From positions 1,952,001-2,016,000 of the forward strand of contig OZ241841.1 in NCBI GenBank assembly GCA_965202665.1: DNA of 64,000 nt, given 5' to 3'. This DNA comes from Candidatus Spongiisociaceae bacterium. Its GTDB lineage: Bacteria; Actinomycetota; Acidimicrobiia; Spongiisociales; Spongiisociaceae. A program made the translations under genes and the position numbers. The notes under the pieces were generated by a model. It was not told the origin of the DNA. It worked only from the letters and a program-made list of their open reading frames with translations, and ran no database searches. Positions within the stretch are counted from its first letter, which is position 1. Each line of letters starts with the position of its first letter. This document shows, one piece after another, positions 31,616 through 46,900 of this stretch.

Positions 31616-31700
31616 CGAAAAGAACGAACCCCGCGGCCGCGGGGTTCGTTGGCCCCGGGATATTGACACTCCCGGGGGTGGCATTTTGTTGTAACAACAG
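31616..31700 (-). ncRNA. Candidate small RNA A1 (~80 nt), NYN-associated
   Basis: Minus-strand TTGACA (31736-31731), 19 nt, TGc-TATACT (31711-31706); hairpin with 9-nt loop; 28-bp palindromic terminator (31623-31650) followed by CUUUU. Confidence 0.65.
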
Positions 31701-31851
31701 AAGTCAGTATAGCACAGGCTGGAGGCGATCTGTCAAATCGGTTCGCGGCGCGGTTCAAGAATTTGGAATTCTCGCGGGCGGGCCCGGGGCGGAGCCGTTC
31801 CGCCCTTGCTCCCCCTGGGGCTGCAGGTGTGAATATTCCTTCGGCTCGGTT

Positions 31852-31937
31852 CGAAAAAGAACGAACCCCGCGGCCGCGGGGTTCGTTGGGCCCGGGATAT
31901 TGACACTCCCGGGGGTGGCTTTGTGTTGCAACAACAG
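31852..31937 (-). ncRNA. Candidate small RNA A2 (~80 nt), NYN-associated; repeat of A1
   Basis: Minus-strand TTGACA (31972-31967), 18 nt, TATATT (31948-31943); same hairpin; identical terminator palindrome (31860-31887) followed by CUUUUU. Confidence 0.65.
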
Positions 31938-31976
31938 CGGTAAATATAACTTGGGGGTGGGGCTATTGTCAAGCCG

Positions 31977-32597
31977 ATGACGCAAAGATCGCAACGGGTG
32001 GCCGTCTATGTGGACGGTCTCAACCTTCACAACGGGTTGCTTAAGTCAGGGCTCCCCAGGTGGCTTGATCCGGTTGCGTTAGGCCGGGAGGTATTGCAGT
32101 CCGGCCAGAGGCTGGTCGGGGTGCGATATTTCACTTCACTGTTGGTCAAGAGCAGGCGTGGACGGCATCAACAGGATCTATACCTGCAAGCTTTGGAGGC
32201 GCAGGGTGCGGAAATTGTGCTGGGGCGGTTTTATGTTTACCCGGTGCGATGCCCCCGGTGCGGGCGAGAGCGGATGGAAGCGGAGGAGAAGCAAACCGAT
32301 GTCAACATAGCGGTGCGGTTGCTGGCCGACGCCCATCAGGATCTGTATGACCGGGCGGTTCTGGTTTCGGCGGACAGCGACCTGTTGCCGCCGATGTTGG
32401 AAATTCCGCGCTTGTTTCCCGGCAAAAAGGCAGTGGTGGGGTTTCCGCCCGGGTTAATGTCTAAGGAGTTACGCCATAAAGTTTCAAACTTCCGGTTGAG
32501 CGCCGCTCACATCCGGCGGTCGCTGGCTCCCTCTCCCGTGGTCACGTCGGCGGGGCGTAAGATCGTCGCTCCGCGGGGATGGTTGCCGGGAAAGTAG
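31977..32597 (+). CDS. NYN domain (LabA/DUF88, PIN-like) putative ribonuclease with CxxC insert
   Basis: VYVDGLNL, EEKQTDVNIA, VSADSDL acidic motifs; RCPRC; TATTGT 7 nt before the ATG (leaderless). Confidence 0.9.
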   Translation: MTQRSQRVAVYVDGLNLHNGLLKSGLPRWLDPVALGREVLQSGQRLVGVRYFTSLLVKSRRGRHQQDLYLQALEAQGAEIVLGRFYVYPVRCPRCGRERMEAEEKQTDVNIAVRLLADAHQDLYDRAVLVSADSDLLPPMLEIPRLFPGKKAVVGFPPGLMSKELRHKVSNFRLSAAHIRRSLAPSPVVTSAGRKIVAPRGWLPGK

Positions 32598-32648
32598 ACT
32601 GGGGCTTGGATCGGTACCGGAACGGACCGCAACCAGGGAGAAAAACTA

Positions 32649-33461
32649 ATGCGCATCGTCGTCGTGGGGCCCGGACGGGCCGGAGGATCGTTGGCGGCGG
32701 CGGCCGCGGCCGCCGGTCACCGGATAGCCGCCCTGGTAACCCGTCGCCCGGACGACCGGGAGGTGGCCCGCTGGTTGGGGGCCGAAACCCGCTTGATCGG
32801 AGAACCTTTGCCGGAGGCCGAACTGTTGGCGGTGGCGGTGCGCGATCAGGTCCTGTCCGAAGTGGCCGCCGCCTTGGCCCCGCAGGCGGGAAACTTTGCG
32901 GGGGCGGTTCATCTTTCCGGGCTGGCCCCGGTTGCGGTCCTGCAACCGTTGGCGGCGGCCGGGGCGGAAATCGGATCCTTTCACCCTTTGCAAACCTTGC
33001 CCGATTGGCGGAGGGGATCCCGTTCCCTGGCCGGGGCCTGCGCCGCCCTCACCGCTCCGCCCGGCCTGGCCGGGCTGTTGGAGGAACTGGCCGAATCGCT
33101 GGGGATGGCCTCCATCCGGCTGGCCGAAGAACAAAAGCCCCTCTATCACGCGGCGGCGGCCGCCGCCTCCAACTATGTGGTAACCGCCCTGCATGTTGCG
33201 CAAACCCTGTTCGCCGCCGCCGAAGTGGACTACCGGGTCGCCCGTCCGCTGGTGGAAACGGCGGTCGCCAACGTTTTTGAAGAAGGGGCGCGGGCCGCCC
33301 TGACCGGCCCCATCGCCCGGGGCGACTTGGAAACCGCGGCCGGCCAGGTGCGGGCGGTGGAGCGGGCCGTCCCCCACTTGGCCGGCGCCTTTCGGGATTT
33401 CGGACGGGCGGCTGCCGACTTGGCCGGGACTACCGGGCGGATGGCCGAGGTCCTGCGATGA
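32649..33461 (+). CDS. Rossmann-like + DUF2520 protein (PanG-like)
   Basis: VGPGRAG, HLSG, FHPLQT, YHAAA, LTGPIARGD; upstream of panC. Confidence 0.88.
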   Translation: MRIVVVGPGRAGGSLAAAAAAAGHRIAALVTRRPDDREVARWLGAETRLIGEPLPEAELLAVAVRDQVLSEVAAALAPQAGNFAGAVHLSGLAPVAVLQPLAAAGAEIGSFHPLQTLPDWRRGSRSLAGACAALTAPPGLAGLLEELAESLGMASIRLAEEQKPLYHAAAAAASNYVVTALHVAQTLFAAAEVDYRVARPLVETAVANVFEEGARAALTGPIARGDLETAAGQVRAVERAVPHLAGAFRDFGRAAADLAGTTGRMAEVLR

Positions 33462-34354
33462 AAGTGGTGAACACGTTGGCGCAGGCCCGCTCTTTGGCCC
33501 GGGGGCGGGTGGGGTTGGTCCCCACTATGGGGTTTTTCCACGAAGGCCATCTGTCGTTGATGAAACGGTCGGCCGCGGAATGCGATCAGACGGTGGTGAC
33601 ACTGTATGTGAACCCGTTGCAGTTCGAGGACGCCGACGACTTGGCCCGTTATCCGACCGACCGCGACCGGGACTTGGAGTTGGCGGAGGAGGCGGGGGCG
33701 GACATTACCGCGCTGTGTTCCACCGAGGATATGTTCCCCGTCCCGCCGCTGACCAAGGTGTCGGTGTCCGGTTTGGGAGATACTTTGGAAGGGGAACACC
33801 GGCCCGGCCATCTGACCGGGGTGGCCACAGTGGTGGCCAAGTTGTTCGCCGGAGTCCGGCCCGACCGTGCTTACTTCGGCCGCAAGGACGCCCAGCAGTT
33901 GGCGGTGGTGTCCCGTATGGCGCGGGATTTGGATTTCCCGGTTCGGGTGGCGGGATGCCCCCTGATCAGGGAGGCGGACGGGCTGGCCCTGTCCTCCCGC
34001 AACGTGTTCCTGGGGGAGGATCGTCCGGCCGCGTTGGGTTTGTGGCGGGGACTGTCGGCGGCCGCCGACGCGATGGAGGCCGGGGAGCGCAACCCCCGGC
34101 GGGCGGAAGATTTGGTGCGGGAGACGGTCCGCGGCTTGGAGTTGGAATACGCGGCGGCGGTGGACGCCGCAACCTTCCGGCCGGCGGACCGCTTGCAGGG
34201 GGAGGTGGTGTTGGCGGCGGCCGCCCGGGCGGGGCCGGTTCGGTTAATCGACAACATCCGGTTGGCGGTGAACGGGAGGGAGGCGACGGCCGACCGGGGG
34301 ACGGCCCTGACCGAACCCAGCATCCTGTACGAGGCCGGGAAGGGGGGCGGCTGA
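33458..34354 (+). CDS. panC: Pantoate--beta-alanine ligase
   Basis: VPTMGFFHEGH, VNPLQF, FGRKDAQQ, GLALSSRN. Confidence 0.95.
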   Translation: MKVVNTLAQARSLARGRVGLVPTMGFFHEGHLSLMKRSAAECDQTVVTLYVNPLQFEDADDLARYPTDRDRDLELAEEAGADITALCSTEDMFPVPPLTKVSVSGLGDTLEGEHRPGHLTGVATVVAKLFAGVRPDRAYFGRKDAQQLAVVSRMARDLDFPVRVAGCPLIREADGLALSSRNVFLGEDRPAALGLWRGLSAAADAMEAGERNPRRAEDLVRETVRGLELEYAAAVDAATFRPADRLQGEVVLAAAARAGPVRLIDNIRLAVNGREATADRGTALTEPSILYEAGKGGG

Positions 34355-45440: not shown

Positions 45441-45493
45441 GCGTCATTATACACATTTGTCTTTCGGGTTGTCAAGCCGTCCGCCGAATTTCT

Positions 45494-45585
45494 TCATCAT
45501 CTCCTGGGCCGGTGGATCGACACTGTTGCCTCGGGGTAGCTGGCGGGGCCATGCTCGTTCCGTATGACCACCGGCCACTGGGGCG
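45494..45585 (-). pseudogene. 3' remnant of a second copy of the NYN gene
   Basis: Reads RQLP/EATVSIHRPRR** with a 1-nt insertion, against [16 protein letters not shown] at the end of the intact NYN gene; same position relative to the sRNA promoter. Confidence 0.65.
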
Positions 45586-45938
45586 CTAGGCGTACTTGGC
45601 CAGGACGTTGGTGACGGTTTGGTTGTTGCATAAGTGAGGACGATCAGCCGCATCCTCCGCCGCCACGGGATGTTGCGTCTGTGGGAATGCGACCCGCTGA
45701 CCGGCGAACCGCTCAAAATCTCTCCCGGGCCGGTGGTGCGGTATGAACGTGAACGGCTTGGTGAGTTGCTGCATATGGATGTTAAGAAGCTTTCTTCCAT
45801 ACCGCCCGGCGGTGGATGGAAGACCCACGGCCGGGGCAACGCCCCCGCCGGAGGGGCGGGGTGGACTTTTGTGCACTCTGTCGGAGGAACACTACCAACC
45901 AGCAGACTGTAACCAACCTACCGGCCATGTACATCTAG
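45586..45938 (+). mobile_element. Internally deleted IS481-family element (MITE-like, 353 bp)
   Basis: Transposase fragment TISRILRRHG...VRYERERLGELLHMDVKKL..IP.GGGW; 30-bp imperfect terminal inverted repeats (45586-45615 and 45909-45938, 23/30 by hand), both ending in CTAG. Confidence 0.8.
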
Positions 45939-46032
45939 GAACAAAGACCTCCCACTGGTCTCTGGCGGCAATCAACCTGTTTCGCGGAGGCGGGTTTGCG
46001 CGGCGGGGCGACGCGCGGTCTTTTGAGAGCGG

Positions 46033-46107
46033 TTAAGAAGACCCGGCCCTAACAGGGCCGGGTGAGTAACTGTTTCAAGGACCTAACGGCCTTGAAACGT
46101 AGCGCTG
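46033..46107 (-). ncRNA. Candidate small RNA B2 (~70 nt), directly downstream of the NYN gene
   Basis: TTGACA (46142-46137), 18 nt, TATAAT (46118-46113), starting 20 nt after the NYN stop; same two hairpins as B1. Confidence 0.68.
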
Positions 46108-46162
46108 GCGTCATTATACATATTTGTCTTTCGGGTTGTCAAGTCGTCTGCCGATTTTTTCT

Positions 46163-46900
46163 TCACCATCCCCGGGGTCGGTGGACGGACCCCACTGCCT
46201 CGGGTAGTTGGCAAGATGTGAAATCCGCTTTTGACAGTTGGTACCACCAATGTCCGCCCCTGCCATCCGTCGGCTTGCCCCGCAGATCCCCGGCTCTTGG
46301 AGAGGGGCTGGGGTTAACGGTGCCGATTGGGGCCCGTAGGCGACATGCTTGGATGGGCAACCGCAGATCGCTGTCGTTGGAGATGACGATTGCGGCGTCG
46401 ACGCGTCCTTTTAGTACATCCAGTAGCAGATGCGAGGCTACGTTCACGTCTGAGCCTTTTTCTTCGATTCGCAGATAGGAGACCATGAACCGGGCGTTGG
46501 GAACGGCTGCGCCCTGCTCGTTCTGTATAACCACCGGCCACCGGGACGTGACGATCGAAGGACGACCCTCTTGGTCTTTGGTCGCAAGTAGCCCGTTTCT
46601 CACCCTGGTGCTGAAACGGCCTTGTTCCAAGTGGTCGATGGAGCGGTGATCCTGTAACGCTCTAACGTAGGCATCTTGGTCCAGGCGCCCTTGGCGGTTG
46701 TGTTGACCGTCGATGAAGGCGGTGCAGTAGACGATCCGCTCGATTACCGCTCCCTGCTCCGTCCAGTCGCGCCGCCGGTCGATCAATCGTTGGCTCAGCT
46801 GGCGGAGGTCGAGCCATCGCCATTCGGGGATTCCCCGGCCGAACAGGGCCCTGCCCCCGTAGTAGAGGTTGAAGCCGTCAATGTACACGCCCACTTTCAT
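46163..46900 (-). CDS. NYN domain (PIN-like) putative ribonuclease
   Basis: [42 protein letters not shown]; lower GC than its flanks. Confidence 0.92.

Follow-up and report, generated by a model that had tools for sequence, protein, structure and literature searches.

Hairpin RNA cassettes beside HEC-09-type NYN ribonuclease genes as the RNA half of a probable type III-like toxin-antitoxin pair

What is the role of the short cassettes, each with a near-consensus promoter and a hairpin, that adjoin two NYN ribonuclease genes of Candidatus Spongiisociaceae bacterium (Actinomycetota, Acidimicrobiia)? The window considered here is the whole stretch of 64,000 nucleotides that was analysed (contig OZ241841.1 of assembly GCA_965202665.1, positions 1,952,001 to 2,016,000), and it belongs to a genome of 2.77 Mb and 64% GC in which four NYN loci are found. 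It holds two of them, NYN1 and NYN2, together with paired cassettes named A (A1, A2) and B (B1, B2), which a first-pass annotation had put forward as cognate RNA partners, antitoxin or guide, of the nucleases. Comparison with relatives supports the view that the cassettes specify conserved, covarying, NYN-linked and clade-specific RNA motifs. The RNA partner that they represent is real and widespread, and it appears not to have been described for this catalogued ribonuclease family; an NYN gene with its adjacent cassette probably forms a toxin-antitoxin pair of a type III-like kind, in which the toxin fold would be new.

NYN1 (31977..32597, plus strand) is a gene for a HEC-09-type PIN-fold ribonuclease of 206 amino acids with a CxxC hairpin, identified by PF01936, the HEC-09 profile and a structure model, while NYN2 (46163..46900, minus strand), identified by PF01936 and the HEC-09 profile, encodes a HEC-09-type ribonuclease of 245 amino acids from an actinobacterial clade. 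Both are open frames in which PF01936 scores above its cut-off. They share 26% identity, and an insert of about 40 amino acids in NYN2 replaces the CxxC of NYN1. The PADLOC HEC-09 profile matches NYN1 at 7e-55 over 197 amino acids and NYN2 at 1.3e-24. Four aspartates (D13, D108, D133 and D135 in NYN1 numbering) are invariant across 51 aligned proteins including NYN2, in agreement with the acidic catalytic motifs already seen as intact in both. The structure model of NYN1 has a pLDDT (predicted local distance difference test) of 95.7 and its nearest folds are VPA0982 and the NYN domain of MARF1. Membership of the HEC-09/NYN family (PF01936) is thus given by profile, PIN-like fold and acidic active site. 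The NYN domain is the sole Pfam domain in 51/51 proteins, the isoelectric point has a median of 9.3 (8.5 or more in 168 of 196), and 2,289 clusters at 50% identity reach an E-value of 1e-30. Searches of NCBIfam, of solved structures by sequence and for a viral relative of NYN2 returned nothing. The protein family is already catalogued, as PADLOC HEC-09; the RNA partner is the new part.

The A pair lies upstream of NYN1 and is divergent from it. Cassette A2 (31855..31972, minus strand) has the promoter TTGACA-18-TATATT (31972-31943) and a predicted RNA of about 82 nt (about 31936-31855) made of a hairpin and a terminator; the second copy, A1 (31618..31736, minus strand), has TTGACA-19-TATACT (31736-31706) and likewise a predicted RNA of about 82 nt (about 31699-31618). 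The B pair lies downstream of NYN2, the B1 promoter being 20 nt past the NYN2 stop. B1 (46034..46142, minus strand) and its second copy B2 (45367..45475, minus strand) both carry TTGACA-18-TATAAT (46142-46113 and 45475-45446) and a predicted RNA of about 73 nt, and the conserved core of B1 is ACTC/ACC plus the hairpin at 46063-46041. Much of the first-pass description is therefore confirmed: four minus-strand, near-consensus sigma-70 promoters of the form TTGACA-N18/19-TANNNT, predicted transcripts of 73-82 nt with a stem and a GC-rich terminator where 65-85 nt had been claimed, one pair divergent and the other downstream, and each family present twice, no further A or B copy being found elsewhere in the 2.77-Mb genome. 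A promoter scan of the window gave 6 sites against 2.9+/-2.1 in shuffles, and the cassette folds have z-scores of -4.2 to -6.2, with 0/200 shuffles equally good. The A copies are 91% alike over 94 nt and the B copies 86% alike over 150 nt; one public contig skips one A copy. A same-genus relative (G349/G301) likewise has two A and two B copies, in which A hairpin 1 has changed in sequence with its pairing kept and one terminator is identical.

The association between these RNAs and NYN genes was followed in 80 GTDB loci of NYN2 relatives, retrieved out of 185 confirmed (44-81% identity), in 80 metagenome loci of NYN1-like relatives, kept out of 248 (28-43% identity), and in 7 plasmid or phage records taken from 30 matches. 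Three RNA models were built: R2 for the NYN2-clade motif (66 training rows, none from this genome), R1 for the NYN1-like loci (50 training rows) and R3 for the A type (11 rows, none from this genome). R2 matches 80/80 NYN2-clade loci (66 training, 14 held out). R1 matches 68/80 NYN1-like loci, always upstream and on the strand of the gene, and R3 adds 4 more (2 training), which brings the models to 72/80; the other 8 comprise 2 weak R1 matches, 3 units recognized by eye and 3 loci without upstream DNA. In this genome, R2 finds only B1 and B2 at E <0.2 (33.2 and 37.2 bits, B2 being the top hit), and R3 ranks A1 and A2 first (46.8 and 39.0 bits; next 26.5). The held-out models R2 and R3 do not cross between A and B, and the RNA families are distinct by sequence, since R1 has no match in this genome.

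Whole-genome scans point in the same direction. R2 gave 65 hits in 48 genomes, reduced to 63 by removing one hit of 26 bits and one that was partial and reversed: in 53 cases an NYN match is no more than 450 nt away (most of these being training sites), 5 hits lie by NYN fragments and 5 alone. The possibility that the cassettes occur genome-wide with no link to NYN genes is thus countered by 58 of 63 hits beside an NYN gene or fragment. Among 79 genomes of the class where an NYN gene was not found, R2 made 0 full hits, and its one hit in genome G147 lies 48 nt from an NYN gene. Independently of the models, a strong promoter followed 30-110 nt later by a terminator occurs at 12 places in this genome, 9 of them at the four NYN loci; the remaining three we take to be an ilvB-type leader, a DUF3800-like remnant (both judged from their translations) and, probably, a chance occurrence. 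It is this strict count that carries the point about linkage, because a looser detector setting gives 144 places. The strict first two cassette detectors missed many cassettes later found by models or by eye, and the 83/141 detector hits against 2/141 in controls are to be read with caution, because the control windows were distal and mostly coding, which makes a weak control. All seven plasmid or phage records have a unit (R3 detects 4, and 3 are recognized by eye). Two 3.5-kb Escherichia coli plasmids have as their three annotated genes NYN, a helix-turn-helix protein and Rop or VbhA, and both carry a hairpin-terminator unit upstream of NYN.

The two other NYN loci of this genome deserve mention. 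At G000:C1:763202-766181, a third HEC-09 NYN gene, accompanied by a divergent A-like cassette, belongs to a triple tandem repeat whose two other copies retain the cassette beside NYN fragments. At G000:C1:1538086-1539000, a more distant NYN gene comes after a perfect promoter and a leader, made up of four or five GC-rich hairpins, that none of the three models matches.

The RNAs bear the marks of conserved structure. Two-sided changes keep 16/19 pairs in the R1 alignment (188 cells against 64 shuffled), 5/9 in R2 and 7/20 in R3; the covariation score was reached by 0/500 shuffles, a result that is inflated by relatedness. RNAalifold, unprompted, gave the same A-type structure. Motifs with covarying stems thus track the NYN clades (R2 for one, R1/R3 for the other), as would be expected of cognate partners. 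By eye, all RNA types show a short single-stranded ACC or AUCCC shoulder followed by a helix with CC at its opening and GG at its close. Between loci, identity is 80% in the B-type core, compared with 60% in the coding DNA and 33% in the 5' spacer. The cassettes match no Rfam motif: a search of the window returned transfer RNA (tRNA) only, and at 17 loci nothing came near the gathering score.

Part of the earlier structural description has to be revised. A stem with a 9-nt loop followed by a terminator is indeed present in the window. However, in the B type this first stem is a local add-on, common only to the window and its closest relative; what is conserved in B is the core formed by the "terminator" hairpin, and for most B-type RNAs the prediction is one hairpin only, about 40-45 nt long. 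The common layout proposed for A and B holds for the own promoter, found at all four cassettes, but a two-stem plan shared by both families is rejected, the B first stem being absent in most relatives. No internal tandem repeats were found in the predicted transcripts. The longest antisense match to either NYN mRNA is 7-8 nt, and antisense action of the type I toxin-antitoxin kind is rejected on this ground.

The position of the RNA gene varies widely around the NYN gene. Among the 80 B-type loci, 67 are downstream-tandem, 11 inverted and 2 upstream. The A type is divergent in the window, on the same strand in a Streptomyces plasmid (L310) and downstream-convergent at another locus (L274), where a truncated A-type remnant is kept at the old upstream site. 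In NYN1-like loci, promoter, RNA, terminator and gene follow each other on one strand in 68/80, the commonest layout, so that the first-pass claim of a layout unlike classical type III systems is not supported. Four layouts are seen overall, two of them in the window, and the protein tree shows clades each with a main layout plus switches; in the NYN2 clade, the RNA gene has been inverted at least twice and has once shifted to the upstream side. The promoter appears to travel with the RNA: a -10 box lies 9-16 nt 5' of the B helix in 71/78 loci (background 2.5%), while the distance from stop codon to B helix varies from 13 to 393 nt. The RNA likely acts in trans, because it is found upstream or downstream and on either strand with its promoter attached. 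As for the genes, those of the NYN2 clade often have only a -10 box just 5' of the start codon (43/79, background 1.2%), which suggests a weak, leaderless expression in contrast with the strong RNA promoter. TATTGT lies 7 nt 5' of the ATG of NYN1, overlapping the -35 box of cassette A2, and the NYN1 start is predicted to be leaderless.

How do these pairs compare with known systems? RNA-neutralized toxins include ToxN-like and HEPN (AbiF) proteins, and PIN-fold toxins are known with protein antitoxins. As far as the available parts of the sources allow comparison, the predicted working of NYN and its RNA comes closest to that of AbiF and its RNA and, more broadly, to that of type III systems, with which they share a ribonuclease gene linked to a non-coding RNA with predicted promoter and terminator. 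The accessible portion of one report states that the RNA of RCd22-AbiF neutralizes AbiF by direct binding, in cis and in trans (10.1101/2025.04.15.648962). The abiF RNA (RF03085), in the partial descriptions at hand, is likewise a structured RNA of about 100 nt with promoter and terminator upstream of a ribonuclease gene, whereas the NYN-linked RNA may also be divergent, downstream or inverted; AbiF is a HEPN protein rather than a PIN/NYN one, and neither RF03085 nor Abi_2/HEPN has a match at the NYN loci. ToxIN, CptIN, TenpIN and AbiQ share with the commonest NYN layout the order promoter, RNA, terminator, ribonuclease, according to the part of the source available (PMC12283969). However, ToxIN, CptIN and TenpIN have a ToxN-family domain, of which the NYN proteins show no likeness, and tandem repeats forming pseudoknots, where the NYN RNAs are one or two plain, position-free hairpins; a repeat form has no room in the B type, which is a single hairpin. 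Their RNA, upstream in the toxin operon, also differs from the divergent and downstream RNAs of the window. The NYN-RNA pair would thus work like AbiF and type III yet belongs to neither, by its different fold, its lack of repeats and its lack of an Rfam motif.

Two further comparisons concern RNA motifs and the protein itself. In the excerpted text of Weinberg et al. 2017 (PMC5737381), the DUF3800, drum and skipping-rope motifs show a genomic behaviour that matches that of the NYN-linked RNA; they are tied to another protein family, neither an Rfam match nor a DUF3800-like neighbour was found with the cassettes, and "NYN" and "DUF88" are absent from the main text as available. HEC-09 (PDLC04163) was described inside Hma systems as a single-gene candidate that failed to protect against the phages used, and "ncRNA" and "non-coding" appear nowhere in the main text as available (10.1101/2024.01.29.577857). 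Like NYN1 and NYN2 it has, in that partial description, a MARF1-like NYN fold with conserved aspartates, but it is presented as a lone gene whereas the window NYNs carry an RNA partner. A literature search, which did not cover subscription papers, turned up no publication in which NYN is linked to an RNA antitoxin.

In the favoured reading, the HEC-09-type PIN-fold ribonuclease is the predicted toxin, and a hairpin RNA of 40-85 nt, made in excess from its own strong predicted promoter, would bind and block it, the basic protein perhaps contacting the single-stranded ACC/AUCCC shoulder and the CC..GG base of the helix. When RNA synthesis stops, through loss of the element or phage shut-off, the ribonuclease would be freed, which could result in addiction or abortive defence. 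The pattern of decay fits a toxin whose retention depends on its RNA, because the RNA often survives the loss of NYN and the reverse is seen in only 2/16 open-frame NYN genes of the class sample. Thus, the 17 strong A-type hits obtained in 40 relatives comprise 6 beside intact genes, 6 beside NYN remnants (one recognized by eye) and 5 that stand alone. The presence of NYN1 is patchy (5/24 family genomes), and the GC content at third codon positions (GC3) of NYN is 0.70 against 0.78-0.85 in neighbour genes.

Several points weigh against this reading. The two genes without visible RNA are L023, in which D108 is replaced by histidine, and L011, whose catalytic residues are intact. Orphan RNAs are also favoured by size alone, since a short RNA offers mutation a smaller target than a gene does. 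The neighbours in the window are of housekeeping type (mpaB, DUF2520-panC, opuAC, ppc), and a PADLOC-matching neighbour occurs at 11/56 loci only, many of them generic, in a scan made without control (13/112 neighbour frames, including HmaB at two sampled loci); a location of NYN within an Hma locus or another defence locus is seen at some relatives (L109, L152) and not in the window. All three models were trained on NYN flanks, and only 71-150 candidates were scored per genome. Finally, HEC-09 was cloned in E. coli with no toxicity reported in the available part of the source (10.1101/2024.01.29.577857); since the clone is said there to include the promoter region, an upstream RNA may have been present in it.

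The results on linkage, trans action and covariation would fit equally well an RNA that binds NYN as a decoy, cofactor or feedback sponge of a non-toxic ribonuclease tuning RNA turnover, with no killing or addiction. The failure of HEC-09 to defend against phages (10.1101/2024.01.29.577857, as available), the housekeeping neighbours and the case of a CRISPR-linked NYN, a sequence-nonspecific RNA-trimming enzyme according to the accessible part of its description (PMC11346440), would also agree with such a role. It is nevertheless considered unlikely, as patchy presence, frequent NYN decay with the RNA kept, low GC3 and carriage by tiny plasmids are typical of selfish or defence modules. It is quite unlikely that the hairpins are cis elements only, acting as an upstream attenuating leader, a downstream mRNA terminator or an antisense promoter damping NYN. 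Although the same-strand upstream layout of NYN1-like loci, the 67/80 B hairpins that could terminate the NYN2 mRNA and the overlap of the A promoter with the predicted NYN1 promoter would suit them, one and the same RNA type is found, promoter included, in three or four positions, transcription of the divergent RNAs leads away from the gene, antisense matches to either mRNA do not exceed 8 nt and the sequence is conserved beyond the needs of a terminator.

A guide or specificity factor aiming the ribonuclease, or a substrate matured by it, would share the own promoter and trans action, and the 5' 8-12 nt do vary freely; there is also the precedent of the AbiF RNA, which gave rise to Cas13 guides according to the available part of the source (PMC12737573). 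Such a role is very unlikely: no variable unpaired spacer-like segment is found, contrary to the guide option of the first-pass annotation, variable parts being too short or, as in hairpin 1, paired throughout; the B-type RNAs are for the most part single 40-45 nt hairpins, and the two copies per locus are near-identical rather than diversified. Hardly credible, lastly, is a toxic RNA with NYN as its degrading antidote, or cassettes that are ends of mobile elements with no RNA function. A repeat remnant between the B copies and two orphan A-type RNAs after a tRNA end could be cited in their favour, but cassettes with intact promoters persist without NYN. Mobile-element ends are rejected, the cassettes being one-sided, without flanking repeats and single-locus, in contrast to the multicopy repeat, and the unit occurring without the repeat at 7/7 plasmid or phage loci.

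Two features of the window were absent from the first-pass annotation. One is a promoter at 45298 with a related-looking hairpin, a possible third, diverged cassette C (45195..45298, minus strand; TTGACA-18-TATGTT and a CCCAG...CTGGG hairpin): its fold has a z-score of -2.3, it has no clear U tail and R1, R2 and R3 do not match it. Its hairpin resembles RNAs of another NYN clade, and it may be a diverged or orphan cassette. The other is the multicopy, insertion-sequence-like repeat remnant between B1 and B2 (45582..45944, no strand assigned), which lies outside the module and has more than 10 other genome copies at 73-93%; it has no Pfam match, and presumably resembles IS481.

Other observations were made along the way. 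At L011, a strong promoter and an overlapping open frame lie upstream of NYN, a possible protein partner replacing the RNA. Two loci (L285, L297) have an A-type RNA right after a tRNA 3' end, with neither its own promoter nor an NYN gene, and the upstream flank of a third (L249) has CRISPR-like 36-nt direct repeats beside a broken NYN gene. Elsewhere in this genome, a short frame at G000:C1:1856564-1857000, whose start we take to be DUF3800-like, has a strong promoter-hairpin-terminator unit at its end, and strong promoters with short structured stretches and U tails occur away from NYN at G000:C1:445022 and 526680 (minus strand). Between the two NYN loci of the window, at 40448-45082, two lipoprotein genes hold three near-identical OpuAC substrate-binding domains, one gene being fused to a BMP-like domain and the other having a doubled domain.

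On balance, the evidence leans towards an RNA antitoxin that restrains a toxin of PIN/NYN fold, the first such case, in a widespread family with hairpin RNAs proper to each clade, the smallest of 40-45 nt and little more than their own terminator, and an RNA gene that moves freely around the toxin gene. If so, type III systems would gain a third toxin fold, and a new pool of ribonuclease-RNA complexes would be available, like that which gave rise to Cas13. For HEC-09, annotated until now as a lone "NYN domain-containing protein", a component would be supplied that had been missing; this alters how it should be cloned and tested, and the RNA partner may explain its negative phage screen. With a minimal single-hairpin RNA, and with natural cognate and non-cognate pairs present in one genome, binding, specificity and structure can be tested directly; the orphan DUF3800 RNA motifs are similar, and the NYN case suggests a hypothesis for them.

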